The translations under genes were made by a program, and so were the position numbers. A stretch of 64,000 bases of DNA from a virus (lineage: Duplodnaviria > Caudoviricetes): positions 41,496 to 105,495 of the IMG/VR virus record IMGVR_UViG_3300021255_003843, one strand, 5' to 3'. The notes under the pieces were generated by a model, which saw only the letters and a program-made list of their open reading frames with translations, had not been told where the DNA came from and ran no database searches. Positions 1 to 54,418 of the stretch are shown piece by piece; positions within the stretch are counted from its first letter, which is position 1, and the number at the start of each line of letters is the position of its first letter.

Positions 1-3000
1 CTCATACAGACCCATACGGCCCTTCGCTTCGCTTGACACTTCCGCAATATGTGTCATTACGTCAGTGAAGCTATGCTGTGTAATCGTCGTCAAGTTTGTG
101 TTGATGGAGATTTTAGTTTTCCATGGCAGGTCATAACACTTCTGGATCTTGTCTACAAAAGCCCAACAGTTAATATTAATGTCAGGATCAACAAGGTGCG
201 CCGCACTTTGTGTAGAAATATCCGGCCACAAGATCTTGTATTGCTCGCCAGTGACACTATCCTCAAAGCCGTCCATGTTGCTGCCATACAGATCAACATA
301 GTTGATGTCATACTTCGCCTCAGGCTTCGACAGCTTTTCTAAATTATCTAAGGCATCGTCATACAGCTTCTGCTCGTCGCCGTCAACGTAATCATTCTTC
401 TGCCAGTAGCCTTCACGATAAAGATCGCCAAGCTCTGTCTTCAGAGCGTTCTCTAATTCCTTTACGTCATCCTGCGCTGATTTGAGCGCGGGATAACATA
501 CGCCGTAAGCTTCGTCGGCGAGGTCTGCAAACTTCTTTGTCAGCGGCGTAATGCCTTTCAGCTCGCCGCTCGGTACAACGTTCTGCAAAACGACATACGT
601 CTCATCTTCTTTTGTGATGATCTTGTTCGCCACGTTCGGCGTCGAAATCGTCACAGCATCAGCAGTGATTACTCTGTCGCTGACGATACGTATATACTTC
701 GTGCCGCCAACAACCAGATCACCGACCTCAGTCACATGTGTCTGTCCGTAGGGAGTGACGACGCTGCCACCCATTCCATATACTGTTTCATAACCAAGAT
801 ACCTGCGCTCTTCGTCATAGTAGTAGACATCGAGATCGCCGTTGTATCCGTTGAAAACATACTCTGTATTCACGTATGCTCTGATAAAACCGGTACGGTG
901 TTTAGCGTTGTCTTCAACATCGCCGCCGCTGCTCTTGTCGATTGTGCCAACTTCTTGAGCAGACATGCCGGCCAGAATGTTATCCGCATGATAGTTGACG
1001 TTATCGAAACGATACGCTTTCGTTTCGATAACGGTTTCAGCGTCTTTGACCTTCTGCGTGATTGTGCTGACGGTTGAATCATAGGTCAGTGTGTCGCCGG
1101 CATTCAACGTATCTTTTGTCGTGAACACCCAATAATTGCCGTAACCATTTTCAAAAGCGTAGTTACCGCTCGGTAATTCAGCGTCCGCAGTATAGGTATA
1201 GTTCTGATAGATACCTTTGATGTATTTATCTCTCGTCTGCCCGGCGGCATACACCGTACCAAACAGAGCAGACATGCGCTTGTCGGCCACAGTTTCCTTC
1301 TTGGCAGACCACGCGCCGCTCTCTTTGCGATACAGTAAAGATTTTTTCCAGTTGAACCAATAATCGCCAGGCGAATCCGCAGGATCCACGCTGTCTACGA
1401 TGACACGTTTCCATGCGGTATCGCCCTTGTCCGCCCAGCAGAAATAAAGTTCGGAAGGTGTCGTGTTGCCTTCGTACCACTTCCACCACCAGCCATAGCC
1501 GTTAAGCGACAGCGCAGAATGAGACGGTTCATCCTTCTCGTAGTACAGAGGATGTTTCACCGTCACTACTTTCACAGCTGTCTCGGCGGCTTGCTGCGTC
1601 GCCTCGTCAGCTGTTTCGTATGCGCCAAGCAAACCATTGACATTATGCTGTGCAAATAAATATACGCGATAAGGAACTGATTGTATATATTTACAATCAT
1701 TAGATGTCAGCCAGAGCGTCAGCACGCTCGGGTTCTCCTCATCGTCTATTTCTTTTAAGTAGGACTTTTCATACTTCAACGGTTCGCCGTTGTAAGGTTC
1801 ATATACAATATAAACAACCGATGCAATATCGTGCACCGGATCGCCATTGCCTTTTAATTCCGTGGCTACCCGCCACTTGAATTGTTTGTCTTCCTTCTTC
1901 GTGTAATCTGTCCTGTACATGACACCTTTTGAGTAATCGTTCGTGTTCAGGTTCAGCTTTACATGCCCGTCCTGCTCTTTCACGATCGTGCAATCAAGCT
2001 TGCAGAAATCAACGGAGCCAATCGTCTCAGACAGCGATGTGATCGCGTTGGCAAACTCCGTCGCCTTTGTATTGACGATCTCCATATACTCCGGCGCTTT
2101 CATCTGGTAATTCGCGATGCGCTGCAACATGCCGTCTGTCAGCAGACCGATGTCGCGGTAGTAATGGAAGTCCATCAGAAAGGAGAACCAGTTCGTTACT
2201 TCTTTGCGCTGAGACTCGTCTTCTGTGAAGAAGGCTTCGCTTTGCGTTTTTTGCTGACTTTCGTACAGAAAATAGGCACGTTCGTTGGCCTCGTCCCAGA
2301 CGTACATACGAGAAGCAGGGTCTAAATCGGACCAGACAACTTTAGATATTTTCTGCAGAGAATCTGAGCTATTTCCGAAGGTAAAATATCGTACAATATT
2401 GATGCCATTCTTGTCGGTCAGGTTGACCTGGCATTCGGTGCCAGGGTCAACCGCCTCACCAATGACGAGAGTGTACACGGTATGTGTGCACTCATCAATG
2501 CCGCAGTAGCCGTTTGTCTTGTCGCCATACGCGCCATAGGCGTACAGCTTCGTGATCATGTTCTCCTCATTCAGCGTGCGCGTAACGTTGCTGACGTTCG
2601 TGCCATAGTGCAACTCGATTACACCTTCGTTCATAACGTCGGGCAGCGCACCATCCTCTGGTTGAGAGAACGGGTTCAGTGGCACAATGTCAACCGTCTT
2701 CGTGTCGCCGTTATAGATCGGTTTCGCCTCGAAGAGGTCACACATGTTCGCTATTAGCTTGAAGGCCCCGGTCTTTGCAGAGGCCTTCAAGCTACGATAC
2801 TTAACAGACGTTCCATCTTTCTCATAGAAAGTGTCTACGTGGCCGGGTGTCCAACCCGTACCTTCAAGAATCGTGTCGAGCAGCATCGCCGCCGTACCGA
2901 CGTTGTTGCCTTCTTCGTCGGAGAATTCAAGCTCAAGACGTTTATGCTTCAACAGCTGGCTGACATGGCCCGCTGTAATGTTTAAGGTTTTCGTATAGTT

Positions 3001-37982: not shown

Positions 37983-40493
37983 ATGAGTATCATTAATTTA
38001 GTGAAATCCAACACCCTGTCTGTCGAAGAAACCAACGGAACCGGTGTCACTTTGAACACCGAAAACCATGCGTTCGGTCTGACTCCCGCGTTCACTCGCT
38101 TCTCCCCCGATTACTTCCAGATCATCGACACTGGAGATATGGATCGCGGAGAAATCCCCGCAGTTCAGAACTATCTCGACAACATCATCGACAACGGCAT
38201 CCAGGATGGAAGCCGTCGCTACATCCCGGTTTTCGCCGGTTCCAGCAACCAGCGCAATGGTCAGTTTGTAATGTGCTGGGACAAAATCTGGAACGACGTT
38301 ACATCCTGGTGCTGTGCCGGTCTCGATTGCAGGAAATTGCCTGTAGGCAAGCTCGCCAAATACATGGCACTCATGTTCTCAACCGTTCGTTCCTGGGATG
38401 CTGTGTTTCCCGATGGTGGACTCTATGGGGTGTTCAAGTACCCACATCCCAGCACCTGGGGCGTGTTCCCTGACGTTGACATTGACGCTGTTGGCCTGTT
38501 CAATAAGGTCACTCCGTGGGCTGTAAACAAAGAACTGGTCCTCGGTTCTGACAAAGAGACCAACAAGATCACTGATGGTATCGCTCTGTTCGTTCTGGAC
38601 GATACTCAGCTCAACTCTCATCAGAAGAAAGAGATCATCAAGAAAGCAGAAGCTTTCACCGTCAGAGCTCCCATGGTCAAAGGTCTCTTCGTTCCTGTTC
38701 TCAAATCCGCATTGATCAAGTGGTTCGAAGATCATCCCGAAGCGTCGTCTATTCAGAAGGACGCTTGGGGCAACGAACAGAACCTGCTCGACCTCCAGGT
38801 CATCACCTTCAAGTCTGTCTTCAAAGCTTGGAAGTGCATCAAGCAGTGGTCCGAGTACGTTGAAGGCTTCGATACCTACGAGCACCATGTGTGGGTCTGC
38901 ATCGCGGCGCACGGGGAGCGTTGGGCTTCCCTGCCGTATCAGCAGCTCCAAACCCTCAACGCCAACAATGCGCAGGTCGAGGAGCTCGCGCGCACCAGCG
39001 CGAGCTTCCTCATCGACAATGCCAAGATCGGTAAGCTTGGCAAGATCATCGGAGGAAACCTTGGCAAGATCGTCGACATCTTCCCGGATATGCTGCATGA
39101 TCCCTTCGTCCGTGAGCAGCTGCAGCGGAAGTGGATTAGCCGCTGCAAGCAGATGTATGGCGGCCGCATCCTGCATGTCAGCCATAATCTGTTCTGCTCC
39201 AGCGACATCATTGCCGTTATTGAAGGGTTGACTGGTCAGTCCGTTCATGGCGTGCTGCCTGCCAATACCGTGCACACTCAGGCCTTTGGTTACGACAGGA
39301 AGCTGGGCTGCACTCGCTGCCCGCATCTCGACAACGCGTGGGTCACTCCGCGCAACATCAAGGTTCCTGAGGAATATCTTGGCCTGTACATGGGCACCAC
39401 AATCTTCTACAGCTGCAATGACAACACCATGAAGGTTCATCAGATGGACTTTGACGGTGATCACAGCAACGTTACCGACAATCCACTGCTCATCAAGCTG
39501 GCTGAGTACAGCCATGCCAGCTATGGCGATTCCTGCCTGCTGTACGCGGCCATGGACGATGGCACCGCGCCGAAGACGACGTCTGATTATAAGACTGAGT
39601 TCAACGAGCTGTGCCGCAACAGCTTCAAGGCTCCGATCGGCCTGTACGCCAACACCCTGACCAAGGTTTGGGCTCTGCGTAACATGATGGAAAAGACCAG
39701 CGCTCAGGCTAAGAACCTGTGGGTGTGGATCGCCTGCCTGACCAGGAAGGGCAACACCTGCATTGATGAAGCTGGCGGACATGGCAAAGACAGCTCCGTC
39801 GGCATCGCGGAAGACGTGGTCGAACGGTTCCGTCGGACAAAGAAGCCATGGTTCCATGGTTATGCCAAGGGCACGATCAATCCTCAGGGTCAGATCGTCC
39901 GCGCTGACGCCGACTACAAGTACGAGTTCAAGCCGTTCCACACTGTCGACGTCTATAGCGCCATCTGCCGGATGCTTGTGCCGACAGAGGCTGAAACAGT
40001 GATCGATCTGTCCGCTTATTCCATTATTTACTCCAAAGAAGTAGCGGCCAGGATCGTTCGTACCCTTATGAAGGATTCCAATGTCCGCACCCGTCGTGCG
40101 GCCATGAAGGATCTTTCTGATACCTTCGCCGATCTCGTCTGCGCAGCCAACCATGAAGAAGTGCTGATCGCTCAGAGCAGCAGCCTGGCCGCTGTGCCGA
40201 ACTTCACCATGGATAAGGTCGATCTGATCCGCGCCAAGTGCGAGCAGATCGCTCTGAACTGCGGCTACACGCTGGACGACGCTGTCGACATTCTGGTCTT
40301 CAATCTGTTCTACAAGACCAGCGCGACCAGTGCGAAAACCTCCATGATGAAGCGCTGGTTCTTCATCGCCTTCGGTGACATCGTGTTCGAAAACGCGCAG
40401 CGCAACCTGTCCGTTGAACTCACGACCACCGACAACTACGAAGACGCCTCCGAGGAGGAGGATGACGACGCGATCGATCAGTTGGAAGACTGA
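37983..40493 (+). CDS. Single-subunit two-barrel (YonO/RdRP-like) DNA-dependent RNA polymerase, early non-virion
   Basis: ITDGIA, FTVRAPMVKG, TRCPHL (R445), QMDFDGD (D489, nt 39447-39461), IGLYANTLTK. Confidence 0.85.
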   Translation: MSIINLVKSNTLSVEETNGTGVTLNTENHAFGLTPAFTRFSPDYFQIIDTGDMDRGEIPAVQNYLDNIIDNGIQDGSRRYIPVFAGSSNQRNGQFVMCWDKIWNDVTSWCCAGLDCRKLPVGKLAKYMALMFSTVRSWDAVFPDGGLYGVFKYPHPSTWGVFPDVDIDAVGLFNKVTPWAVNKELVLGSDKETNKITDGIALFVLDDTQLNSHQKKEIIKKAEAFTVRAPMVKGLFVPVLKSALIKWFEDHPEASSIQKDAWGNEQNLLDLQVITFKSVFKAWKCIKQWSEYVEGFDTYEHHVWVCIAAHGERWASLPYQQLQTLNANNAQVEELARTSASFLIDNAKIGKLGKIIGGNLGKIVDIFPDMLHDPFVREQLQRKWISRCKQMYGGRILHVSHNLFCSSDIIAVIEGLTGQSVHGVLPANTVHTQAFGYDRKLGCTRCPHLDNAWVTPRNIKVPEEYLGLYMGTTIFYSCNDNTMKVHQMDFDGDHSNVTDNPLLIKLAEYSHASYGDSCLLYAAMDDGTAPKTTSDYKTEFNELCRNSFKAPIGLYANTLTKVWALRNMMEKTSAQAKNLWVWIACLTRKGNTCIDEAGGHGKDSSVGIAEDVVERFRRTKKPWFHGYAKGTINPQGQIVRADADYKYEFKPFHTVDVYSAICRMLVPTEAETVIDLSAYSIIYSKEVAARIVRTLMKDSNVRTRRAAMKDLSDTFADLVCAANHEEVLIAQSSSLAAVPNFTMDKVDLIRAKCEQIALNCGYTLDDAVDILVFNLFYKTSATSAKTSMMKRWFFIAFGDIVFENAQRNLSVELTTTDNYEDASEEEDDDAIDQLED

Positions 40494-41342: not shown

Positions 41343-41572
41343 GCTATGACCTGAGTACGTCGTTAAACTGCTCCGGCTTGTCTGCGCCGTAAAGACAGGC
41401 TTCTTATCCCGCAGCGCGGCTCCCCCTTTTTTCCGGCCCCATATTTTTCCCGCTTCCGCTCGCTCCGCTCCACCTCGCCTTCGGCTCGCTCCGCTCCGCT
41501 TCGCTGCTTGCGTGCGCTTCCGCGCTTGTTTCCGGATGTTGCTCTATCGTGTGATTCTGTCCGAGTTTTCCT

Positions 41573-43832: not shown

Positions 43833-43930
43833 GCACCTACATACTTTATCTGATATAGTACATCGACAGATGATGTATATATATCTGGTTGAATTTTTAA
43901 CCAGATTATCCTGGACATACCTCGCCTTAA

Positions 43931-43960
43931 CCGCGCTGAGGACAGCGCGGGCCATGATGG
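43931..43960 (+). promoter_or_regulatory. AGGA-loop hairpin element, copy 3
   Basis: CCGCGCTG-AGGA-CAGCGCGG-GCCATGATG. Confidence 0.7.
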
Positions 43961-43976
43961 AACTTACGGGGACTCC

Positions 43977-44076: not shown

Positions 44077-44331
44077 ATGGAAGAAGAGTTCAAAGAAGGA
44101 GATCTTGTCGTCATCAAACAGAGCAAACATTGCTTAGTTGAAGACATCAGACAAGAACATCGCAAAGCATTTGAGATTCTTTGCGCGACGCCGCACGCAG
44201 TGAGAGATTATAAGAAATCATCAAATCTACTTTATGTTCCGGTTCTGGAAGGCAATGCCACAATTGTCTTGAGTCCGGAATGGTTTGAGCACGCTGACGA
44301 TCCCATCGAGAACAATCCTGACCTGTACTGA
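44077..44331 (+). CDS. Small SH3/KOW-like paralog 1
   Basis: FKEGDLVVIK...PEWFEH...PDLY. Confidence 0.65.
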   Translation: MEEEFKEGDLVVIKQSKHCLVEDIRQEHRKAFEILCATPHAVRDYKKSSNLLYVPVLEGNATIVLSPEWFEHADDPIENNPDLY

Positions 44332-44366
44332 CGCCACTTCCCCGCTCCGCCGTTACGCAGACGGGG

Positions 44367-44400
44367 GCGGCCTGAGGACAGGCCGCGCCAGGATGAAGGG
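44367..44400 (+). promoter_or_regulatory. AGGA-loop hairpin element, copy 4
   Basis: GCGGCCTG-AGGA-CAGGCCGC-GCCAGGATG. Confidence 0.7.
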
Positions 44401-44453
44401 TTTGACGCCCTTCGGAAATAACAAACGTGCGGCAGAGCCGCGAGGAGGAAATT

Positions 44454-44642
44454 ATGGAGCGTGAATATTTCTTTAACCAGAGCAAAGCTTTTGATCCGAC
44501 CGCCGGCTGCGCCCTGAACCGCATCGAAGCGGAGCAGAAAAGAAAAAGGAATAAGGAAGCCTGGCTCGAGATCGCCCGCAAGATGTGTTCTAAGCCTCAG
44601 CATCTCTTTGTTCCGGTAGGTGAACTGGTTGTGAAAGCCTGA
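44454..44642 (+). CDS. Small hypothetical protein
   Basis: ATG after GAGGAGG. Confidence 0.6.
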   Translation: MEREYFFNQSKAFDPTAGCALNRIEAEQKRKRNKEAWLEIARKMCSKPQHLFVPVGELVVKA

Positions 44643-44680
44643 TCCCGCCGGGAAAAGAAGCTTGACTTCAGCAACGAAAG

Positions 44681-44714
44681 GCGGCCTGAGGACAGGCCGC
44701 GCCAGGGTGAAGGG
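44681..44714 (+). promoter_or_regulatory. AGGA-loop hairpin element, copy 5
   Basis: GCGGCCTG-AGGA-CAGGCCGC-GCCAGGGTG. Confidence 0.7.
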
Positions 44715-44886
44715 TTATACGGCCCTTGCCCGACGAATCGCAAAACAAAAGCGATTCGTCGCAAAATCAAGACTCGTTACGCGCTGCAGACAAATGCTCC
44801 GGCGCGAAACGATATATTTTGATGCGAAAAGCATCCGACAAAATGGCAGACGCCAAACGCCCACAGGGCAGAAAGAGAGAGAGAGT

Positions 44887-45306
44887 ATGAATAAGCTGTT
44901 TATCATGGGTCACCTCACCGCCGACGCTACCGTCCGCACCGTCAATGTCGCTGGCGTTCCTACGCCTGTTGCCACCTTCACCGTCGCTGCCAACTATGGA
45001 CGCCGCAACGAGAATGGTGACCGCAACGTCCAGTTCGTGCGCTGCACCGCGTGGCGTGAATTCGCCAGCAAGCTCGCGCCGTACCTGAAGAAGGGCACCC
45101 AGGTGGCCGTCGAAGGTCCGTGCCGCGTCTCCGTGTACCAGAGCAACCAGGACCGCACCTGGCGTGGTCAGCTCGAGATCCCGACGATCGAGAGCTTCGA
45201 GTTCCTGAGCGCCCAGAAGAGGGACGAAGCGGCTGAACCCGCAGAAGCGCCCGCTCCTGAGACGCCCGCTGCTCCCGCCGCCGATGACGGCTACCCCTTC
45301 GATTAA
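44887..45306 (+). CDS. ssb: Single-stranded DNA-binding protein 1
   Basis: MNKLFIMGHLTADA, ATFTVAAN, YLKKGTQVAVEG, acidic DDGYPFD tail. Confidence 0.88.
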   Translation: MNKLFIMGHLTADATVRTVNVAGVPTPVATFTVAANYGRRNENGDRNVQFVRCTAWREFASKLAPYLKKGTQVAVEGPCRVSVYQSNQDRTWRGQLEIPTIESFEFLSAQKRDEAAEPAEAPAPETPAAPAADDGYPFD

Positions 45307-45323
45307 TGAAAAGAGGAATCTGA

Positions 45324-45428
45324 ATGGATCCGTATTCTGAGTTCTGTACTGTCGAAGACGCGCTGGACTGGTTCACCGGCGAAGCGCTCTTCGAGCTTCA
45401 CGAATTCGAGGAATCCGAAAACGAATAA
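45324..45428 (+). CDS. Very acidic 34-aa peptide
   Basis: Read manually: MDPYSEFCTVEDALDWFTGEALFELHEFEESENE; RBS AAGAGG. Confidence 0.5.
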   Translation: MDPYSEFCTVEDALDWFTGEALFELHEFEESENE

Positions 45429-45459
45429 GGCGGGCTTGTCCCGCCTTTTTATGCAGCGC

Positions 45460-45628
45460 AGCCCGTCAATGTCGGACAAGCTGTACTTCCAAGAATAAGT
45501 GGTTGAAACCGACCATATTGATAGTTGCCAGGTCAAGTAACTGTTCAATGGGGACAAGCCACTTCATGGGACAACTCCTCCGCGCGCCGAGACGCCCTCC
45601 TCCTCCTGGGGCGTCTCGGCTTATTTTT
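45460..45628 (+). ncRNA. Candidate structured small RNA with C-rich loops and terminator
   Basis: Long interrupted hairpin at about 45498-45564, CTCCTCC motifs, terminator GCCGAGACGCC/GGCGTCTCGGC plus TTATTTTT. Confidence 0.4.
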
Positions 45629-45703
45629 CGTCAGCGAAGTCTTTTGAAGGCCGCCGTCTGGCCCGGACCGCAATAACTTGTATTATCGAATCGGAGGCGG
45701 AAG

Positions 45704-45994
45704 ATGACTGAACAGGCGCGTGGTTTCAAAGAAGGCGATCTGGTTGTTGTAAAGCCAGAATATGCAGATGTGATGTACGAAGCATACAAACACCTCATAT
45801 TGTACGGTACGCCTAAGTCTAAGCTTGGTAAAAACATTGCTCTCGGAGAACCCGCTATCGTTCTTCGCGTTTGGGATGACGAAATGTGGATAACCGACAA
45901 AGATGACAGAACGGGAGAATTCATTGCACCTCTAACGCAATGGTTTACGTTTTATAAAAATAAAGCAATGGATGCAATTGATCATCTCCTGTAG
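45704..45994 (+). CDS. SH3/KOW-like paralog 2
   Basis: FKEGDLVVVKPEY...IDHLL. Confidence 0.7.
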   Translation: MTEQARGFKEGDLVVVKPEYADVMYEAYKHLILYGTPKSKLGKNIALGEPAIVLRVWDDEMWITDKDDRTGEFIAPLTQWFTFYKNKAMDAIDHLL

Positions 45995-46004
45995 GAGGAT
46001 TAAA

Positions 46005-46286
46005 ATGAGTAGTTTTGAAATTGGCGACATCGTAGTCGTCAAGCCAGAATATGCCTCATCCTTCAGAAACATATACGAAGGGCATGAGAGTTTGTTCAAT
46101 AGACATAAAGTTCGCTTCGGAATCAGCGTTTCGGAAGGCGCACCAGCGCGTGTCGTGCATACCACTTATGACGGCATCGACCTGACCGATCTCGACAATA
46201 CACTCAGCCCCAACTCCTGGCTCTGCACCGAGAGAGAATGGTTTGAGCTCTATCAAGAGCGAGGACCGATCGAGCAGCTCTTGTGA
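46005..46286 (+). CDS. SH3/KOW-like paralog 3
   Basis: FEIGDIVVVKPEY...IEQLL. Confidence 0.7.
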   Translation: MSSFEIGDIVVVKPEYASSFRNIYEGHESLFNRHKVRFGISVSEGAPARVVHTTYDGIDLTDLDNTLSPNSWLCTEREWFELYQERGPIEQLL

Positions 46287-46293
46287 GGTAACT

Positions 46294-46617
46294 ATGGATT
46301 ATTTTCACGTTGGAGATATCGTCGTAGTAAAGCCTGAATATAGCGAAGAGCTGATAAGAAGCTATTCGTCTGGCTACAGCGACGCAAAATGCAAATTTGG
46401 TCGCGCTGTTGCGCGTGGCGCTCCAGCCAAGGTCGTCCACTGTCACAAAAGCGAAATTGTCAAAGTGTCAGACTACACGAAAGAGTATCTAACTTTTGGT
46501 GGCAGCAGCGGATGGCTAACAGATCTTGAGGAAACGCTGCAATGCGAGGATTATTTGCACCTAAGCAGCGCCTACTTTGACCTTTATATGCCTCCGATAC
46601 CTGATGGTCTGCTGTAG
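46294..46617 (+). CDS. SH3/KOW-like paralog 4
   Basis: FHVGDIVVVKPEY...PDGLL. Confidence 0.7.
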   Translation: MDYFHVGDIVVVKPEYSEELIRSYSSGYSDAKCKFGRAVARGAPAKVVHCHKSEIVKVSDYTKEYLTFGGSSGWLTDLEETLQCEDYLHLSSAYFDLYMPPIPDGLL

Positions 46618-46627
46618 GAGTTTTATA

Positions 46628-46870
46628 ATGTGTTATGTGCATGAAATAGAAACGTTTCACGAAGGTGAAATCGTCGAAATGACAGACCATGTGAAAAAGT
46701 TACCACGACTAAAAGAAGCCCGTATTTTACAGGATGACAAATTCCTAATAAAAGATGTAGGCGTAAACGGTATTTTAAAAATACAGAATATAAGAAACAA
46801 CGAAGATTACTATGTCAAAAACATTTCATTGCAGCACATAGTTCCTGAAGTTGAAACATGTCTTCTGTAG
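46628..46870 (+). CDS. SH3/KOW-like paralog 5
   Basis: FHEGEIVEM...ETCLL. Confidence 0.65.
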   Translation: MCYVHEIETFHEGEIVEMTDHVKKLPRLKEARILQDDKFLIKDVGVNGILKIQNIRNNEDYYVKNISLQHIVPEVETCLL

Positions 46871-47183
46871 GAGCGCCCATGCCAACATCAGTGTATCAGC
46901 CGGACCAGTTTGTCGTCGCGCTGCTGTAATTATTGCGTGCCCCTTTGATCATCACCCGTGCAAATCGGGCAGGGGCTATACTCAACCTCCTTTCTGGACG
47001 CTGGCAAGCCGTCCAATGAAGCTTGCCAACAGGTTTGCGGTACTCGCCTGCCCTAATATAAAAAACCGTTGTGAGTAGACAGTCATGGCAGTGTGTCTGC
47101 AAGTCCCGGGAGTCCTCCAAGTGCAGGTAAATGCATAGCCTCGAACTCCCGGGGCGGACGTTCTATTTTGAAAGGAGACGCTC

Positions 47184-47639
47184 ATGCTGAGATTTGTCAA
47201 AGGTGATTTGCTTGAAGCAAAAGAAGATTTCATCTGCCATCAGGTCAACTGCATGAGCGCAATGGGCTCAGGCATTGCTAACCAGATCGCGGACAAATGG
47301 CCTCAAGTAAAAACACTGTATTTATCAAAATGCCAGATGTTTGATGACAGAAGACTTCTGTTGGGCAAAGTTCAGTCTATAAAAATCGATGAACATCAAT
47401 ACGTACTGAATATTTTCAGCCAGTATACTTATGGCAGCGACAAAAATACGGTCTATACAAACTATCCAGCTTTGCAGAAAGCGTTGTATCTGGCTCGTTT
47501 GCCTGATAAAAGCTATGCTTTTCCGTACCACTTTGGATGCGGCTTAGCGAACGGCGACTGGACAACTGTTCGTTCGCTAATTGAGAAAATACTGGCCTAT
47601 GACCACGAAGTTGTTATTTACAAGAGGTACGCCACATGA
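47184..47639 (+). CDS. Macrodomain protein (Poa1p/DarG-like ADP-ribose hydrolase)
   Basis: KGDLL, HQVNCMSAMGSGIA, AFPYHFGCGLANGDW. Confidence 0.88.
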   Translation: MLRFVKGDLLEAKEDFICHQVNCMSAMGSGIANQIADKWPQVKTLYLSKCQMFDDRRLLLGKVQSIKIDEHQYVLNIFSQYTYGSDKNTVYTNYPALQKALYLARLPDKSYAFPYHFGCGLANGDWTTVRSLIEKILAYDHEVVIYKRYAT

Positions 47640-47905
47640 AAGGAAACGCTAAGCTATACAAACCAGGCGACGAAGTGTTCGTCTCCGACGATATTATGTA
47701 TATGAATACCAGTGACGGCGTAGGCATTGCAGAAGCGATGAAAACAATGGCCGGCCAACGTCTGACAATCAAAGCTATTTCCGATGGATATCCGAAGTGT
47801 GGCTTGTGTTATATCGTAAAAGAAAATACTTTCTTATGGCAGGATGAAATGTTGGAGCCCATTAGCAACATTGACATGACCGCCATGGACAGCCTGCTTT
47901 TATGA
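47636..47905 (+). CDS. SH3/KOW-like paralog 6
   Basis: YKPGDEVFV...WQDEMLEP...DSLLL. Confidence 0.7.
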   Translation: MKGNAKLYKPGDEVFVSDDIMYMNTSDGVGIAEAMKTMAGQRLTIKAISDGYPKCGLCYIVKENTFLWQDEMLEPISNIDMTAMDSLLL

Positions 47906-47915
47906 GGTAATAACT

Positions 47916-48197
47916 ATGTTTCAAGAAGGAGATCTCGTCGTAGCGAAAAACCCGGCAAGAATGCGAGAAACATATAAAGATTGGGCCAAACGATACCCGG
48001 ATGAACGCATCAAGTATGAACTCGGGCTGAAATTTGCTGACGGTGCGCCTCTTGAAATTATCAGGATGAGAGGAGCCACCGGCGTAGTTCTCGGCCCAGT
48101 TGGTTCGTCATGCACAGACAACGACAAAACGCTCTGGCTCAACTCAGGCGATCTTGCGCTTTGCGACGACATGCAGCCTGTGTCTGATTTATTGTGA
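47916..48197 (+). CDS. SH3/KOW-like paralog 7
   Basis: FQEGDLVVAK...VSDLL. Confidence 0.7.
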   Translation: MFQEGDLVVAKNPARMRETYKDWAKRYPDERIKYELGLKFADGAPLEIIRMRGATGVVLGPVGSSCTDNDKTLWLNSGDLALCDDMQPVSDLL

Positions 48198-48204
48198 GGT
48201 AGCT

Positions 48205-48414
48205 ATGTTTCGAGTAGGCGATATAGCAATAGCCAATGAACGCGCCAAAGGCGTTTATTCAATAACCAAGCCAGGCTGGATCGGCACAGTTATCAGGGTT
48301 TATCCTGGTTTCATTACAGTAGCCGGAAAAGAAGGCAATTTCACTGTATGTTCGGAACACTTCGATCTTTATAAGGATCCTCTTGATATCAAAGACATCT
48401 CGCGGTTGATATGA
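48205..48414 (+). CDS. SH3/KOW-like paralog 8
   Basis: FRVGDIAIA...YSITKPGWIGTV...SRLI. Confidence 0.7.
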   Translation: MFRVGDIAIANERAKGVYSITKPGWIGTVIRVYPGFITVAGKEGNFTVCSEHFDLYKDPLDIKDISRLI

Positions 48415-48422
48415 CCGCATAT

Positions 48423-48495
48423 GGCCTCTTAGCTCAGCCGGTAGAGCAGCTGACTGTTAATCAGCCGGTCGCGCGTTCAAATCGCGCAGAGGCCT
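48423..48495 (+). tRNA. tRNA-Asn (GTT)
   Basis: GGCCTCT/AGAGGCC acceptor, GCTGA-CTGTTAA-TCAGC anticodon arm, GTTCAAAT T-loop; no encoded CCA. Confidence 0.88.
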
Positions 48496-48667
48496 CGTCG
48501 GGACGATCTGCCGGAAAATGGCGCAGATCACGCGCAACGCTGTTGGAACAGAAGGCTTGGGTTGCGCAACTTGTCAGCAAAAGAAATATCTATAGTTTTT
48601 AGCCATTTCCATGCCTTGCTTACAGCTGACAGCCCTGCCGCTGGGGTCATAATACAGCGGATTTTAT

Positions 48668-48860
48668 GGAGACTTAGCTCAACTGGGAGAGCGCCAGCGT
48701 TGCTCAGCGTAGGTCAGATGTATAGTCAGGAACTGACCAAAGCGTTTCGGCTCGGCAATATAACTCACCCCGTGATATTAAACGTTGCCATATTTTGTTG
48801 AGGACAGAATAAGCGGATGCACGCAAGAGGTCGGCGATTCGAACCCGCCAGTCTCCACCA
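48668..48860 (+). ncRNA. tRNA-like RNA (193 nt) with ~117-nt structured insert in the anticodon arm
   Basis: GGAGACT/AGTCTCC-ACCA acceptor, AGCTCAACTGGGAGAGC D-arm, TTCGAAC T-loop; Ala-like TGCACGCAAGAGGTC on the 3' side. Confidence 0.7.
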
Positions 48861-48959
48861 GGTGCTGCCTTACAGGGGGCAGTATGCCGGAGTCATGACC
48901 GGCACTTCTGTACGTCGTTTTGGCACCGGTTTGGGCGCTATAATCTAACTGGTGCACGT

Positions 48960-49033
48960 GGGGATTTAGCTCATCAGGTCAGAGCAGCGCTCTTATAAAG
49001 CGCAGGTGCATGGTTCAAGTCCATGAATCCCTA
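48960..49033 (+). tRNA. tRNA-Ile (TAT)
   Basis: GGGGATT/AATCCCT acceptor, GCGCT-CTTATAA-AGCGC anticodon arm, GGTTCAAGTCC. Confidence 0.85.
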
Positions 49034-49106
49034 TTTGCCCGTGACCATGGAAACACGGGCAAGACGCATCGCCTCTTTAAAATATAGCCGGCGTGTCCGG
49101 CTATAT

Positions 49107-49178
49107 AGGGGAGTAGCCAAACGGAAAGGCACGGGACTTTGACTCCCGCATGTGAAGGTTCAACTCCTTCCTCCCCTG
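49107..49178 (+). tRNA. tRNA-Gln (TTG)
   Basis: AGGGGAG/CTCCCCT acceptor, CGGGA-CTTTGAC-TCCCG anticodon arm, GGTTCAACTCC. Confidence 0.88.
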
Positions 49179-49199
49179 CTACGAAATCAAGGAGCTTAT

Positions 49200-49448
49200 A
49201 TGGCGTGTAAATTCAAACCCGGCGACGTGATCGTCGGCAACGATCTCGCTGACGAACGTTACTTTATCACTAACAAAGGCTGGATCGGTCAGGTCATTTC
49301 TGTAAGCCGGGACTGCTTTAGCGCAAAAACGCTTTACAAAAGCGGCAAGCTTGGCACACTTTTTCCTGCCCTTGGTTACGAATACTTTAACGTGCTCGAA
49401 CCAGAATTCGACGCCAAGCATATTAAACAGATGGCAATGATATTATAG
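49200..49448 (+). CDS. SH3/KOW-like paralog 9
   Basis: FKPGDVIVG...YFITNKGWIGQV...AMIL. Confidence 0.7.
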   Translation: MACKFKPGDVIVGNDLADERYFITNKGWIGQVISVSRDCFSAKTLYKSGKLGTLFPALGYEYFNVLEPEFDAKHIKQMAMIL

Positions 49449-49458
49449 GAGCGACCGT

Positions 49459-49701
49459 ATGCTGTCACAAACAAAATTTCAGATAGGCGATTATGTGATC
49501 GGCACAAAGGAAGCTACCGCGCACTATGCGATCACAAAAGAGGGCTGGACCGGTCAGATAACGGAAATACGGAAATATACTATCATGGTGTACGGCAAAG
49601 ACAACTGTGACCGTGACAGATGGTTCGAAGTAGAGCCTAAATATTTTGAATCATGTGATTCGCAAAATTTCAATCAGAACGAGTTTCAGCAGATATTGTA
49701 G
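49459..49701 (+). CDS. SH3/KOW-like paralog 10
   Basis: FQIGDYVIG...YAITKEGWTGQI...QQIL. Confidence 0.7.
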   Translation: MLSQTKFQIGDYVIGTKEATAHYAITKEGWTGQITEIRKYTIMVYGKDNCDRDRWFEVEPKYFESCDSQNFNQNEFQQIL

Positions 49702-49710
49702 GGAGAAACC

Positions 49711-49947
49711 ATGGATCGCAACACTCGATATAAAGTAGGCGACATCGTGCGGTGCTATCGGAAGTTTATTGATGTTCCGGAAGAAACGCTGTTCGAAATT
49801 GTCCAAGTAAACGCCTATTCTTATTATACTACATATCTCATCACGCCGGCCACGATGGATGGCAAGCGTTATTATGTTCGCGCGGAAAGTATTCGCAAGG
49901 CGAGCGTGAACGATTTTGACAAGCGGAAAATTAAAACTCTGCTGTAA
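49711..49947 (+). CDS. SH3/KOW-like paralog 11
   Basis: YKVGDIVRC...IKTLL. Confidence 0.7.
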   Translation: MDRNTRYKVGDIVRCYRKFIDVPEETLFEIVQVNAYSYYTTYLITPATMDGKRYYVRAESIRKASVNDFDKRKIKTLL

Positions 49948-49956
49948 GGAGACAAC

Positions 49957-50289
49957 ATGTTTAGTCCATTGAATTATTCGCCGGAAGATCTGTTCGATGA
50001 CGAAAACAAAGACGGCCTCGACAGCGAGCGCTTTGTCGTCGGCGACAGTGTATACATTCATCCGGACCTGCGCGAAACCGACAAGGGTGCGTCCGTGACG
50101 GAAGATATGCTCAACTATGCCGGTTCGCTTGCCAGAATCGTGAGAGTGCTGGGCAACTCGTATAAGCTCGATGTTGATGATGCAGACTGGGTCTGGGATG
50201 ATTACTGTCTTCTGAGTCAGAATGAGTTCGCGCAATATATTACTGGCGTTGCCAAGGTAGAAATCAAACGGCTGGAGGGCTTGATATGA
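49957..50289 (+). CDS. SH3/KOW-like paralog 12
   Basis: FVVGDSVYI...WDDYCL...EGLI. Confidence 0.7.
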   Translation: MFSPLNYSPEDLFDDENKDGLDSERFVVGDSVYIHPDLRETDKGASVTEDMLNYAGSLARIVRVLGNSYKLDVDDADWVWDDYCLLSQNEFAQYITGVAKVEIKRLEGLI

Positions 50290-50591
50290 GCTACGATATC
50301 TTCGACATTCACAACGAAGAGGGCATATGCGCCAAATTGTTCGATGTTGGTGATAAAGTAATCATCCGTTCTGACATCAGACCGACCAATAAACACCCGA
50401 CGATCACATCGCAAATGGCGGCCTTGGCAGGCAAAGAAGGTACCGTTGTCCGTAAAAACGGTGACGCTTCTTATCTTCTTGATATTTCAGGAGGCGAATA
50501 CGGCTACGTCTGGTGCGATTACTGTTTCGAGCCTCCGGACACAGGCGCTGCTAATTCACAAATAACCGAGTCTATGCCGGTTCTGCTGTAA
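50286..50591 (+). CDS. SH3/KOW-like paralog 13
   Basis: FDVGDKVII...WCDYCFEP...MPVLL. Confidence 0.7.
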   Translation: MSYDIFDIHNEEGICAKLFDVGDKVIIRSDIRPTNKHPTITSQMAALAGKEGTVVRKNGDASYLLDISGGEYGYVWCDYCFEPPDTGAANSQITESMPVLL

Positions 50592-50792: not shown

Positions 50793-51398
50793 ATGATTTC
50801 TATCACCCTGCTCACCAATGCTGGCCGTCAGACTACTCCCGTGTCCGAAGATACCTCTATCCGCGAAGTGCTGGATTCCAAGCACATCAACTATGCCGCC
50901 TCCGTCGTTCAGCTGGATGGCTGCGCGCTGCGCCCCGGCGACATGGATAAGACCTTCGCCGAAATGGGCATCAAAGACAGCTGCTATCTGACAGCCGTCG
51001 TTAAGGCGGATAATGCTGCCAAGGTCACCGTGGTTGGCGAAGCCGCCGTTGTCACCTCCGCGCTGAAGCTGGCAGACATCAAGACCGCCAAGAAGTATCG
51101 CCCGGAAGCCTTGGAGCTGAAGAAGGACAAGGATGTCATCTTCGCTGTTGACACCACTGATCGTTCCGCCGGCTCCATCAATATCCACGGCGCAACCTTC
51201 TCCAACGCCACGGACGCTGATGGCTATGCCACCATCACCATGACCGTGGATCGCGGCGAGGATGTTGAGAAGACTCTGCTCGATAAGATCGGCATGGGCC
51301 TGCTGCTGTTGAATCAGGTCGAGGAAGCCTTCGGCGAACAGCTGGCGTCCATCCAGGCTGATCAGGCGAAGATCAAGTCTCTGATCGACATCAAGTAA
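50793..51398 (+). CDS. Ubiquitin-like (beta-grasp) domain fused to a C-terminal helical domain
   Basis: ATG 50793 after AAAGGAG; VSEDTSIREVL...LDG..L...DKTFAEMGIKDSCYLTAVVKADNA matches the Ub fold pattern; directly upstream of E2/JAB/E1. Confidence 0.75.
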   Translation: MISITLLTNAGRQTTPVSEDTSIREVLDSKHINYAASVVQLDGCALRPGDMDKTFAEMGIKDSCYLTAVVKADNAAKVTVVGEAAVVTSALKLADIKTAKKYRPEALELKKDKDVIFAVDTTDRSAGSINIHGATFSNATDADGYATITMTVDRGEDVEKTLLDKIGMGLLLLNQVEEAFGEQLASIQADQAKIKSLIDIK

Positions 51399-51480: not shown

Positions 51481-52890
51481 ATGTTCGGAAATACGTTTAA
51501 TGAAATCAAATATTTTGGCGACGCGTTCGCCGAACAACACGAGAAGTTGAGCAGGATCACGCAGCGCGGAAATTATCAGAATGATAAGACGATGCTGGCG
51601 TTTGCACGAGCCCTTCTATTTAACAGGCTCCCGGAAGGCGAAACCTTCTCCATCAATATCTACCCCATCGACAGCCCGATCTATCAGGACATGATGGACC
51701 ATCCAAAGGAGAAGGACGAGCTGCACAATCAGCTGTTCGTTTTCTACAAGGAAGACGATACAATCGACGAAGCGCAGGTCAACGCGTTCTACGCCAAGTA
51801 TCCTACGTTCCATATCATGCAGCAGCATATGGACTTCTTCTCATCGTGCGCAAAAGCCTGGTGCTACAACGATACTGAGAACATTTCCGCCATCCTGTTT
51901 CTGCAGGAAGCGAATGTGCGCAAGATGCACCTGCTGTTCTCCATGCTCTCCGCCTACTTCAAGCCTCTGTGCCCGGTCATGACCGGCTATGAGAAGACAG
52001 ATTTCTGCCCGTCCATGACCAAGCGCGCTTCTCAGCCCTTTGAGGAGTGCATGGCTCACCTGGCGCATGAGTATGGCATCGATCAGGAGTATATGGCGTT
52101 CATGATCCGGAACTACACCCGGAACAACGTACGTGTCGTTATCGATCAGGCTGAACGCACTCTGGCTGAACGGCGGGACACGCTGCAGCGTAATATCGAA
52201 GAGTACACTAATCTATACCGCGCTTTCAAGCAGGCTTCTGATAACGTTGAACTGCTGAAATCTCGCCCCGTCGAAGAAGATACAGAGCTCGTAGATTTCT
52301 TCAAGGCACATAAGAATATCAGGCTGTTCGACGTCAGCGGCGATATGCTCAAGTTCTATGTACTGGGTACTCTTGAGTGGTTTGATCTTGAATTCTATCA
52401 TCGCGCGGCGAGGAACGATAATGCCATCTACCGCATCAACGCGCCACGGGCTTTCTCTGAGCTGGAAGACCGCAAACTGTTGATGGACGCCATCTTCTCC
52501 GATGATCCGATTTTCAAAATCCGCATGTGCTCATCCTATGGTCTGTCTATCACCGGCGATGTGGACGTCTGGGCTAACTATAACTATCCCGCGGATATAC
52601 TTAAGCAGTATATTCCGAATCCGCATATTCAGTATCACCGCTGCCTCGGCGACCATCGTGATCCGATCCGCCGCGCGCTGAGAGACAATAACATGCCGCT
52701 CGCCATCGAGCAGTGTATCGCCTCCGCTCAGTCCGTCAATATTGCGGAGCGCAGCGTCACCTTCGATCCGTTCATGAAGAACGTATTCAGCTCCACAAAC
52801 AAGATTCTGGTGGATATGAAAGGCAAAGAATATACGCCCGTCGAGGCTCTGAAATATCTGAAAAAGAAAGCGCAGGCTGAGAGCAAATGA
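51481..52890 (+). CDS. Prokaryotic E2-like conjugating-enzyme domain protein with long N-terminal/coiled-coil region
   Basis: C-terminal PNPHIQYHRCLG (H...C-x-G) motif; operon context with Ubl, JAB and E1. Confidence 0.65.
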   Translation: MFGNTFNEIKYFGDAFAEQHEKLSRITQRGNYQNDKTMLAFARALLFNRLPEGETFSINIYPIDSPIYQDMMDHPKEKDELHNQLFVFYKEDDTIDEAQVNAFYAKYPTFHIMQQHMDFFSSCAKAWCYNDTENISAILFLQEANVRKMHLLFSMLSAYFKPLCPVMTGYEKTDFCPSMTKRASQPFEECMAHLAHEYGIDQEYMAFMIRNYTRNNVRVVIDQAERTLAERRDTLQRNIEEYTNLYRAFKQASDNVELLKSRPVEEDTELVDFFKAHKNIRLFDVSGDMLKFYVLGTLEWFDLEFYHRAARNDNAIYRINAPRAFSELEDRKLLMDAIFSDDPIFKIRMCSSYGLSITGDVDVWANYNYPADILKQYIPNPHIQYHRCLGDHRDPIRRALRDNNMPLAIEQCIASAQSVNIAERSVTFDPFMKNVFSSTNKILVDMKGKEYTPVEALKYLKKKAQAESK

Positions 52891-53735
52891 AAACGATAAA
52901 GATCACGGAAGCCGATAAGGCCGCCATCAGGGAAGAGTTTGAGAAAACTCTGGCTGATTACCGGCTTCCGAACGGCGAGTTCAAGTTTACAAAATCCTTC
53001 GCCGCCCGCAAAGCGGCGAAGGATGAGCGCATCACGCTCTATTATACGCCGGACGCATATCTGAAGATCACCGCTCTGGTGAACAAGTTCGATACAGAGG
53101 TAGGCTGGCATGGTCTCGTCCGTAAGGTAGACGATAAGACTTACCTGATCTATGACATCCTGGTCTATAAGCAGGAGGTCACCGGCGCAACCGTCAACAC
53201 GGATCAGGATGAGTATGTCGAATTCCTGAAGAATCTCACCGACGAGCAGGCCGAGCATATGTTCTATCACGGCCACAGCCATGTCAATATGGGTGTGTTC
53301 GCCTCCTCTGTGGATATGGATCACCGCGCACGCCTGATCCAGTGTGCTGATGAAAACGGTTTCTGGATTTTTCAAATTTGGAACAAACGTAAGGAAGTTT
53401 CGACCGTACTCTATGACCTCGCCAATAATGTTCTGTATGACTCGGATGACATCGATATGACCGTCCTGTTCGCGGACGGCTCCGACGTTACGGAGTTCAC
53501 TGCGAACGCGGATAAGCTCGTCGTAAAAAAAAATACCTTGCCCGCTCAGGTCAAGATCGACAGCAAGTGGTCGGGCGGCTCTTACAATACCGCGCAAAAA
53601 GAGCCCGAAAAGTCCAAAAAGGCAGAAAAAGCTAAGGATAAGAAGAAGTACGAGGACTATGACGACGACCTGATTGACGATGGCACTAAGCCTTATGGCT
53701 ATGGCTATGGTTACGGGTATGGCTACAATTACTAA
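52887..53735 (+). CDS. JAB/MPN metallopeptidase (deubiquitinase-like)
   Basis: EVGWHG and HGHSHVNMGVFASSVD (HxH-x7-S-x2-D); GY-repeat tail. Confidence 0.88.
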   Translation: MKTIKITEADKAAIREEFEKTLADYRLPNGEFKFTKSFAARKAAKDERITLYYTPDAYLKITALVNKFDTEVGWHGLVRKVDDKTYLIYDILVYKQEVTGATVNTDQDEYVEFLKNLTDEQAEHMFYHGHSHVNMGVFASSVDMDHRARLIQCADENGFWIFQIWNKRKEVSTVLYDLANNVLYDSDDIDMTVLFADGSDVTEFTANADKLVVKKNTLPAQVKIDSKWSGGSYNTAQKEPEKSKKAEKAKDKKKYEDYDDDLIDDGTKPYGYGYGYGYGYNY

Positions 53736-53746
53736 GGAGAGAAGAC

Positions 53747-54418
53747 ATGGATCTTTCTAAATCCTATGAATTCTTCCAGCCTTCCATGTGCGACGGCCGC
53801 ATCCACATCATCGGATGCGGCTCCGTCGGCTCTACAGTGGCGGAACTGCTGGTTCGCTACGGCCTGACCAATATCACGCTCTATGATTTTGATCATGTCG
53901 AGGCTCACAACATCGCTAATCAGATGTTCGATAGTACCGACATCGGCAAGGAAAAGGTCACAGCCGTGGCCGATCATCTGATCGCTATCAATCCGGAGCT
54001 GCGGGACACTCTGCGCATCGCCGATAAGGGCTATACAAATCAGAAGCTCTCCGGCTATGTATTCCTGTGTGTCGACAATATCGACCTTCGACGCAAGATC
54101 GCCGAGGAAAACAGGAACAATGTATTTATCAAGGCGATGTTCGATTTCAGGACCCGCCTGACCGACGCCCAGCACTACGCTGCGGATTGGTCTGACGAAA
54201 AGCACAAGGAAGCCTTCATCAATTCTATGCAATTCTCGCACGAGGAGGCGTCCAAGGAGACGCCTATGTCCGCCTGCCATGTCACCCTCAGTGTGGCGGC
54301 GACAGTGCGCCTGATCTGCACCTACGGGGTCGTCAACTTCATTGACTTCCTCAAGAAAGGGACCCTCAAGAAGACCGTACTCATCAACACAGAGCTCTGG
54401 GACTTGATGGGTATCTAA
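53747..54418 (+). CDS. ThiF/E1-like activating enzyme
   Basis: IIGCGSVGS, YDFDHVEAHNIANQ, GKEKV, CVDN, late Cys in SAC. Confidence 0.92.
   Translation: MDLSKSYEFFQPSMCDGRIHIIGCGSVGSTVAELLVRYGLTNITLYDFDHVEAHNIANQMFDSTDIGKEKVTAVADHLIAINPELRDTLRIADKGYTNQKLSGYVFLCVDNIDLRRKIAEENRNNVFIKAMFDFRTRLTDAQHYAADWSDEKHKEAFINSMQFSHEEASKETPMSACHVTLSVAATVRLICTYGVVNFIDFLKKGTLKKTVLINTELWDLMGI

Follow-up and report, generated by a model that had tools for sequence, protein, structure and literature searches.

What role is played by a C-terminal peptide that a whole set of otherwise strongly diverged small phage proteins hold in common? This question is raised by an uncultured gut phage (Duplodnaviria; Caudoviricetes; IMG/VR record IMGVR_UViG_3300021255_003843; 105,495 bp, 95% complete), of which we analyzed the 3′ 64 kb (record positions 41,496 to 105,495; hereafter the window). 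The large terminase (TerL) of this phage is closest to those of Clostridium phage c-st, phiCD211-like Clostridioides phages and SPbeta-like Bacillus phages. Between window positions 44077 and 50591, 13 small open reading frames (ORFs; 69-110 amino acids, aa) encode diverged SH3/KOW-like mini-proteins with a common tail, and the adjoining cassette encodes a ubiquitin-like protein (Ubl), an E2-like protein, a JAB peptidase and an E1 enzyme. We interpret the tail, with a probability of about 55%, as a portable docking tag for one common, fast-evolving and probably phage-encoded partner. A docking peptide with a single partner is proposed because the tail is predicted to be disordered, is selected at the protein level, occurs on unrelated folds, and is uniform within a phage yet differs between phages.

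A shared C-terminal tail

A previous sequence-only reading of this DNA, made without database searches, had described the array and its endings, and both descriptions held. All 13 ORFs are present on the + strand at the claimed site, and the motif (F/Y)xxG(D/E)x(V/I/A) lies close to the N-terminus in 13/13, preceded in two by a ~23-aa leader. The endings are DHLL, EQLL, DGLL, TCLL, SLLL, SDLL, SRLI, AMIL, QQIL, KTLL, EGLI, PVLL and PDLY, as listed there, so that [LI][LI]-COOH closes 12/13 array proteins and LY the remaining one; a gene in the same position as this exception in a related locus (L011) ends FECLL. Four further family members lie outside the window, dispersed within genome 10.7-23.2 kb, for a total of 17 in the genome. 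Across the whole genome, the [LI][LI] end was found in 15/17 family ORFs vs 6/392 other ORFs of at least 60 aa (expected frequency 2%; Fisher p = 8e-21). The terminal codons vary as had been noted, with ten distinct codon pairs among the 13 genes. Together, this enrichment and codon diversity indicate that the tail is selected at the protein level.

The stop codon is also frequently part of the next ribosome-binding site (RBS), again in agreement with the earlier observation, and together with the bases after them many stops spell TGAGGT or TAGGAG. The tail could then be a nucleotide-level by-product of translational coupling, with the stop overlapping the next RBS. We find this barely credible, since the Leu/Ile codons precede the RBS formed by the stop and come as ten codon pairs. 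Uncoupled genes moreover retain the tail (window 50286-50591 and L010:2198-2443), and other lineages keep other residues there.

The "di-aliphatic tag" of the sequence-only reading is too narrow a description: the terminal pair is present, but the conserved stretch exceeds two residues. A hydrophobic residue occupies positions -1 and -2 in 17/17 family members, -5 in 12/17 and -8 in 7/17, with polar or acidic residues at -4 and -7, giving a core of approximately hydrophobic(-8), hydrophobic(-5), x, x, L, L. When family members from eight loci were considered, the exact terminal hydrophobic pair was found in 54/62.

Tail versions in related phages

Homologues were checked for loss of the terminus, which would have counted against a functional tail; orthologues retain it, and distant relatives carry their own lineage's version. 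Specifically, gut-metagenome orthologues of the mini-proteins keep IDHLL, IEQLL, PDGLL, TCLL, SDLL, ISRLI and FQQIL, with DSLLS as the sole exception. Among more distant loci (L) and genomes (G), the tail reads FxKLL in L011, FxxML with 0-2 residues added in L013, F-x-x-[IM]-[LF] in L018 and L019, L-x-[DE]-[IV]-L in L028 and G005, [IL]-D-[DG]-L-[LI] in L048 and L051, S-[IL]-x-D-F-[VLI] in L068 and G004, and ELMxLLGG with 0-4 residues added in L035-39, where L035 endings also comprise LLDN, ILSL and LLGV. In L010, nine paralogues that are elsewhere only ~20% identical share ECxCxSLL, and in L070 and L099 the tail versions are followed by 1-6 residues. Tails in G004 and G005 were counted by regular expression, because the profile of the SH3-like family (alignment A3) was too narrow for their visibly SH3-like proteins. 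The LC3-interacting region/Atg8-interacting motif (LIR/AIM), by which proteins contact Atg8-like Ubls, reads [WFY]xx[LIV] after acidic residues; an F after acidic residues is seen in L011, L013, L018 and L019, and position -5 of the window proteins is mainly I, V or M. Hence the tail, which had been called invariant, is uniform within a phage and changes version from lineage to lineage. As the version is specific to each lineage, the protein that reads the tag probably evolves fast and is most likely phage-encoded.

This lineage specificity bears directly on readings in which the partner belongs to the host. We consider a docking tag more likely than a degron, a motif for clamp binding or a substrate of E1. 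Generic degradation signals in bacteria include non-polar C-termini, e.g. the ssrA tag LAA, and a disordered, exposed and hydrophobic tail, located at the exact C-terminus in most members, would suit a C-terminal degron by which a host ClpXP, ClpCP, FtsH or Lon-type protease clears early proteins quickly. We nevertheless consider a degron unlikely: the tail differs between close phages and is shared by all paralogues in each, which is unexpected for a conserved host protease, and positions -5 and -8 and the acidic context are conserved too. The 1-6 residues after the motif in several lineages, and ends in LL, IL, FV or ML, which are unlike the small-residue LAA class, argue in the same direction.

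Lineage-specific versions would likewise be left unexplained by a conserved host clamp, i.e. if the tail were a sliding-clamp or replication-hub motif (a PCNA-interacting protein (PIP) box or T4 gp45-type tail) targeting the host beta-clamp. The spacing i, i+3, i+4 and the acidic residue before the pair (SIDDFV, SLADFL) do resemble the PIP core h-x-x-a-a and T4-type tails, but the Gln required by the PIP box QxxhxxAA and by the bacterial QL[SD]LF motif is absent at the corresponding position. In addition, PF00712 and PF02768 detected no clamp gene in the 95%-complete genome, and no polymerase or large replication protein is tagged in G000, G004 and G005, making this explanation quite improbable.

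The same tail on a second protein family

In G004 and G005, not only the SH3-like proteins bear the lineage's tail, but also the members of a ~100-aa family (alignment A8) without a Pfam match. A8 and the SH3-like family align with an hhalign probability of 0.05%. Proteins of the A8 type form their own tandem arrays, with a consensus of M..., C(S/T)xEEA, L, G, W, and carry the lineage tail in three loci (Table 1). These sequence comparisons show that the tail is portable between unrelated families.

Acidic "MTREEF" proteins and a 268-aa protein after E1 were also considered as tag carriers, with tail-like ends in few loci; both were dropped because their endings are inconsistent across ~40 homologues.

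Predicted fold of the mini-proteins

None of the 13 window proteins matched a Pfam family (E up to 1 or 0.01) or reached the gathering score of PF18346 (SH3_15), and their PHROG matches were weak. An exhaustive profile search returned 150 representatives, mostly multi-repeat proteins matching Pfam SH3_15 at E = 1e-70, so that the link of the mini-proteins to SH3_15 is, at the level of sequence, transitive only, via profile matches to SH3_15-carrying proteins. SH3_15 or Mib repeats are the peptide-binding, substrate-binding modules of the E3 ligase Mind bomb.

An AlphaFold2 (AF2) model of mini-protein 7, based on a 39-row alignment, gave an SH3-like barrel into which a helical hairpin is inserted (predicted local distance difference test (pLDDT) 89.2, predicted template modeling score (pTM) 0.78). 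Confidence is ~94 in the barrel vs 67 dropping to 44 over the last ~13 residues, with residues 90-93 below 50; the tail is therefore placed outside the fold. Foldseek returned only weak KOW/SH3 matches for this model, with no E below 0.18. Structural alignment with VIA-align related the barrel to PetP (Z 6.2), to Mib repeats 4tse_B (Z 6.0) and 4xi6 (Z 5.9), and to SPbeta YorP (Z 4.9), the 4tse_B match (rmsd 4.5, 73 residues aligned) having a middling Z tied with PetP, NdhS and KOW barrels. The proposed combination of a variable binding domain and a docking tail is thus supported in part, namely by the confident barrel, the disordered tail, orthologues that retain the tail while the preceding linker drifts, the tail versions proper to each lineage, and the occurrence of the tail on a second family in two relatives.

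SH3-like barrels bind short peptides, and one tail version is common to all paralogues of a phage. The tail might accordingly mediate self-association of the mini-proteins, either as homo- or hetero-oligomers or with one protein's tail in the SH3 groove of another. Three observations make this very unlikely, however: the same tail occurs on a non-SH3 family, it is not packed on its own barrel in the single-chain AF2 model, and the tail stays constant across highly variable SH3 surfaces (mean column identity 21-25%).

Placement relative to the Ubl cassette

Tagged ORFs are concentrated around the Ubl cassette, falling in one ~20-kb stretch centered on it (~10-12 kb either side) in 24/25 cases in G004 and 19/20 in G005. 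Their lengths span 51-168 aa, with no polymerase or other large enzyme among them (G000, G004, G005). Co-occurrence of array and cassette, which the sequence-only reading had proposed as a check, gave a mixed picture: tagged genes lie within ~10-12 kb on either side of the cassette in G000, G004, G005, L010, L011, L013 and L019, but are absent in the cassette-bearing G001. L019 was reached via a mini-protein rather than via the cassette, and in this locus two tagged SH3 genes separate E1 from the reverse transcriptase (RT).

The window cassette starts directly downstream of the array with an in-frame fusion of a Ubl, ending ...VVKADNAA, and a ~125-aa "domain X"; the latter is a separate gene in L015 and L010 (Table 1). 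Relatives' Ubls end ADSAA, ADGG, ADGGC or ADGGCC, and the ADGGC/ADGGCC ends suggest processing by JAB to a small-residue C-terminus. A retron-type RT follows the cassette here and in nearly all loci examined. E1 also matches E1-E2 models of CBASS/6A-MBL systems, and is the most conserved clade protein, with 59-65% identity vs 23-25% for TerL across four diverged genomes. Because of this conservation and the near-constant RT, cassette and RT together look like a core module of a phage clade. IMG/VR holds >735 JAB homologues and 148 E1 relatives, and the L010 cassette is homologous to that of the window (E1 52%, JAB 39%, E2-like 25% identity).

Of all cassette components, the E2-like protein has diverged most (24-58% identity), and it bears a large extra domain. 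Its AF2 model (pLDDT 91.6) has an alpha/beta domain at the N-terminus (1-160), followed by a single helix of ~60 residues (200-261) and, at the C-terminus, by an RWD/UBC-like domain that aligns to the Knl1 RWD domain (Z 6.7); a PNPH....C(388)LG motif, C350 and C412 are invariant. It matched no Pfam, NCBIfam or PADLOC model, and Foldseek of the whole model gave no meaningful match. The nearest named Atlas cluster is Prok-E2_D, with a score of only 0.81, and tblastn vs deposited phage records returned a single match, an unannotated fecal scaffold corresponding to L010.

The proximity of E1 and JAB raises the question of whether the mini-proteins are themselves alternative modifiers, their C-terminus being adenylated by E1, possibly after JAB trimming, as for CBASS Cap2 with CD-NTases. 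Most members end at the motif, one lineage has LLGG with or without short extensions, and the genes adjoin E1 and JAB. E1 adenylation pockets are narrow, however, and the cassette's own beta-grasp Ubl ends small (ADNAA, ADSAA, ADGG), unlike LL, FV or IL. Since L035 endings vary within the lineage (LLDN, ILSL, LLGV) and the true Ubl ends ADNAA/ADGG, we rejected the E1-substrate idea that the L035 LLGG had raised, and we hold modification of the mini-proteins themselves to be most improbable.

A proposed docking tag and its possible reader

Under the docking-tag interpretation, the 13 genes and four dispersed paralogues would encode rapidly diversifying, small cytoplasmic SH3-like (Mind-bomb-repeat-like) barrels, each bearing a flexible ~10-residue C-terminal peptide with the core hydrophobic-x-x-[LI]-[LI]-COOH. 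This peptide would couple many different small heads to a single shared partner, and the heads would act as the variable binding modules of early accessory or counter-defense proteins. Gene neighborhood points to the adjacent Ubl/E2-like/JAB/E1 machinery as the reader, an identification that we favor only tentatively even if the tail is a docking tag. Within this machinery, the E2-like protein is the favored candidate on the same neighborhood grounds, being the most diverged component and having the large extra domain. If the cassette is the reader, tagged proteins would be substrate receptors or substrates of Ubl conjugation. A more specific and rather doubtful possibility is a phage modular Ubl ligase, in which the tag plugs 10-25 interchangeable receptors (SH3-like and other folds) into the E2-like protein and Ubl is placed on receptor-held host proteins, e.g. 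defense proteins.

Several observations weigh against a docking tag read by the cassette. G001 (126 kb, 100% complete) has the cassette without a recurrent tail, so the cassette does not require tagged arrays, and the observed co-occurrence is biased because cassette genes served as the entry point to most loci. Tagged genes and cassette may be close simply because both belong to an early or accessory region, which also contains the single-stranded DNA-binding protein (SSB), macro domain and tRNAs. Phylogenetic profiling of G000/G004/G005 vs G001 yielded no array-specific protein, these genomes being too diverged. With regard to the tail itself, some lineages (L013, L035, L070, L099) have 1-6 residues after the motif, so that the pair is not always followed at once by a free carboxylate. 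Recombination among paralogues could also have helped to make the tail versions lineage-specific.

We know of no function for phage-encoded Ubl/E1/E2/JAB cassettes, and to our knowledge small early gut-phage proteins are almost all uncharacterized. Full-text searching of the literature found no description of such shared tails. The shared tag offers an experimental handle, in that a 10-residue peptide could be used as bait for the reader, and the 17 heads represent a panel of binders whose targets would reveal which host functions the phage manipulates. With the Ubl machinery as reader, a modular substrate-receptor system for protein conjugation would be described for the first time in a bacterial virus; if the reader is otherwise, the tail would still represent an undescribed addressing system.

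Array layout and neighboring features

The 13 genes lie where claimed, upstream of the Ub cassette, but do not form a contiguous array: they are interrupted three times, by an SSB gene, by a macro-domain gene, and by three tRNAs (Table 1). A blastn search of the array region matched tRNAs only, tblastn of two mini-proteins vs deposited phage records gave no match, and single mini-proteins scanned against IMG/VR detected no relatives. A profile built from the 13 detects one of the four additional family members, the other three being identified by motif, and two non-family small proteins have the same ending.

Table 1 Features of the array, the cassette and related loci. Positions refer to the window unless stated; the first coordinate of each mini-protein is its likely start.
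Feature	Position	Strand	Length	C-terminal end	Details
Mini-protein 1	44077..44331	+	84 aa	PDLY	Variant end; in profile, scores 66.8 bits
Mini-protein 2	45704..45994	+	96 aa	AIDHLL	Orthologues P0012, L008:57-341 retain IDHLL
Mini-protein 3	46005..46286	+	93 aa	PIEQLL	Orthologue L008:351-632 retains PIEQLL
Mini-protein 4	46294..46617	+	107 aa	IPDGLL	Orthologues P0026 PDDLL, L008:640-909 PDGLL
Mini-protein 5	46628..46870	+	80 aa	VETCLL	Orthologue L008:918-1166 VKTCLL
Mini-protein 6	47636..47905	+	89 aa	AMDSLLL	Weak PHROG 17705/7488 matches; L008 paralogues end DSLLL and DSLLS
Mini-protein 7	47916..48197	+	93 aa	PVSDLL	Modeled by AF2
Mini-protein 8	48205..48414	+	69 aa	DISRLI	Orthologues P0077, L008:3654-3878 retain NISRLI
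Mini-protein 9	49200..49448	+	82 aa	QMAMIL	
Mini-protein 10	49459..49701	+	80 aa	EFQQIL	Orthologue P0092 retains EFQQIL
Mini-protein 11	49711..49947	+	78 aa	KIKTLL	
Mini-protein 12	49957..50289	+	110 aa	RLEGLI	
Mini-protein 13	50286..50591	+	101 aa	SMPVLL	Final array gene, without coupled downstream gene
Additional family member	genome 16569-16853				Detected by profile
Additional family members	genome 21198, 22450, 22950				Identified by motif
Non-family small protein	genome 10711			MEQLI	
Non-family small protein	genome 11563			IKELL	
Ubl fused to domain X	50793-51398	+		Ubl part ...VVKADNAA	Directly downstream of array
E2-like protein	51481-52890	+	469 aa		
JAB peptidase	52887-53735	+			
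ThiF-type E1	53747-54418	+	223 aa		ThiF E = 4e-22
Ubl and domain X, separate genes	L015 6911-7309, 7837-8067				
Ubl and domain X, separate genes	L010 2692-3117, 3257-3493				
A8-type family	L068 14890-16801				With lineage tail
A8-type family	L028 12872-14578				With lineage tail
A8-type family	L048 1658-1963				With lineage tail
Macro-domain protein	47184-47639	+	151 aa		Inside array
tRNAs	48423-49179	+			Asn-GTT, Ile-TAT, Gln-TTG
Non-coding spacer	~46900-47180; L008 ~1620-1900		~270 nt		5′ of macro gene
Repeated element (x3)	43930-43974, 44366-44410, 44680-44724		45 nt		
YonO-like RNA polymerase	37983-40493 (genome 79478-81988)	+	836 aa	...DDDAIDQLED	

The macro-domain protein resembles the macro half of the antitoxin DarG (NCBIfam E = 1e-13; Pfam Macro E = 0.002) and is conserved in L008, G001 and G004; it may be a counter-defense ADP-ribose hydrolase. 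The non-coding spacer upstream of its gene is ~90% identical between the window phage and L008, which exceeds the conservation of the flanking genes, and it has no Rfam match and an unremarkable fold energy (z = -0.8). The tRNA block within the array comes after the array in L008.

A 45-nt element occurs three times, 5′ of the first mini-gene, of the SSB gene and of one small ORF, and consists of a GC-rich hairpin (GGCGGCC...GGCCGCC) followed by AGGATGAAGGG; it is possibly a phage RNA polymerase promoter or a regulatory element. The YonO-like RNA polymerase encoded further upstream has an end that recalls the AIDHLL-type tail but finishes Glu-Asp, which may be a coincidence or a decayed or variant tag.

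Comparison with known systems

The heads are most readily compared to the Mind bomb REP region and Pfam SH3_15 (PF18346), in that the mini-protein profile retrieves SH3_15 proteins and the modeled barrel aligns to 4tse_B and 4xi6. Unlike these repeats, the window proteins are single-domain, contain a helical hairpin as an insertion, end in a conserved tail, and score below the Pfam threshold.

The gene set adjoining the array (Ubl, E2-like, JAB, E1) is the same as in Bil/Bub operons. These Ubl-conjugation operons are host defense systems for which no tagged small-protein families have been described (10.1101/2023.09.04.556158; PMC10557695; PMC11601596). The phage cassette differs in that it belongs to the core of these phages and is coupled with an RT, and its E2-like protein falls outside the Pfam, NCBIfam and PADLOC models.

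As a short, disordered, acidic-hydrophobic C-terminal peptide, the tail is similar to hub-binding tails such as the clamp tails of T4 gp43/gp33/gp55, PIP boxes, and the DDDIPF tip of SSB. Such tails are common to several unrelated proteins meeting at one hub. Here, by contrast, the clamp profiles detected no gene, the tail is missing from replication enzymes, the defining Gln is absent, and the 17-25 carriers per genome are all small accessory proteins.

By analogy, the overall arrangement also recalls the ankyrin-PRANC/F-box-like families of poxviruses and BC-box proteins (HIV Vif), in which a variable head is joined to a conserved C-terminal element across many fast-evolving paralogues. The C-terminal elements of these families are folded boxes of ~40 aa that plug into a ubiquitin-type ligase and hijack host cullin ligases, whereas the phage element is a ~10-residue disordered peptide and the candidate ligase is phage-encoded. 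A phage modular Ubl ligase, should it exist, would be the counterpart of cullin-type substrate-receptor families.

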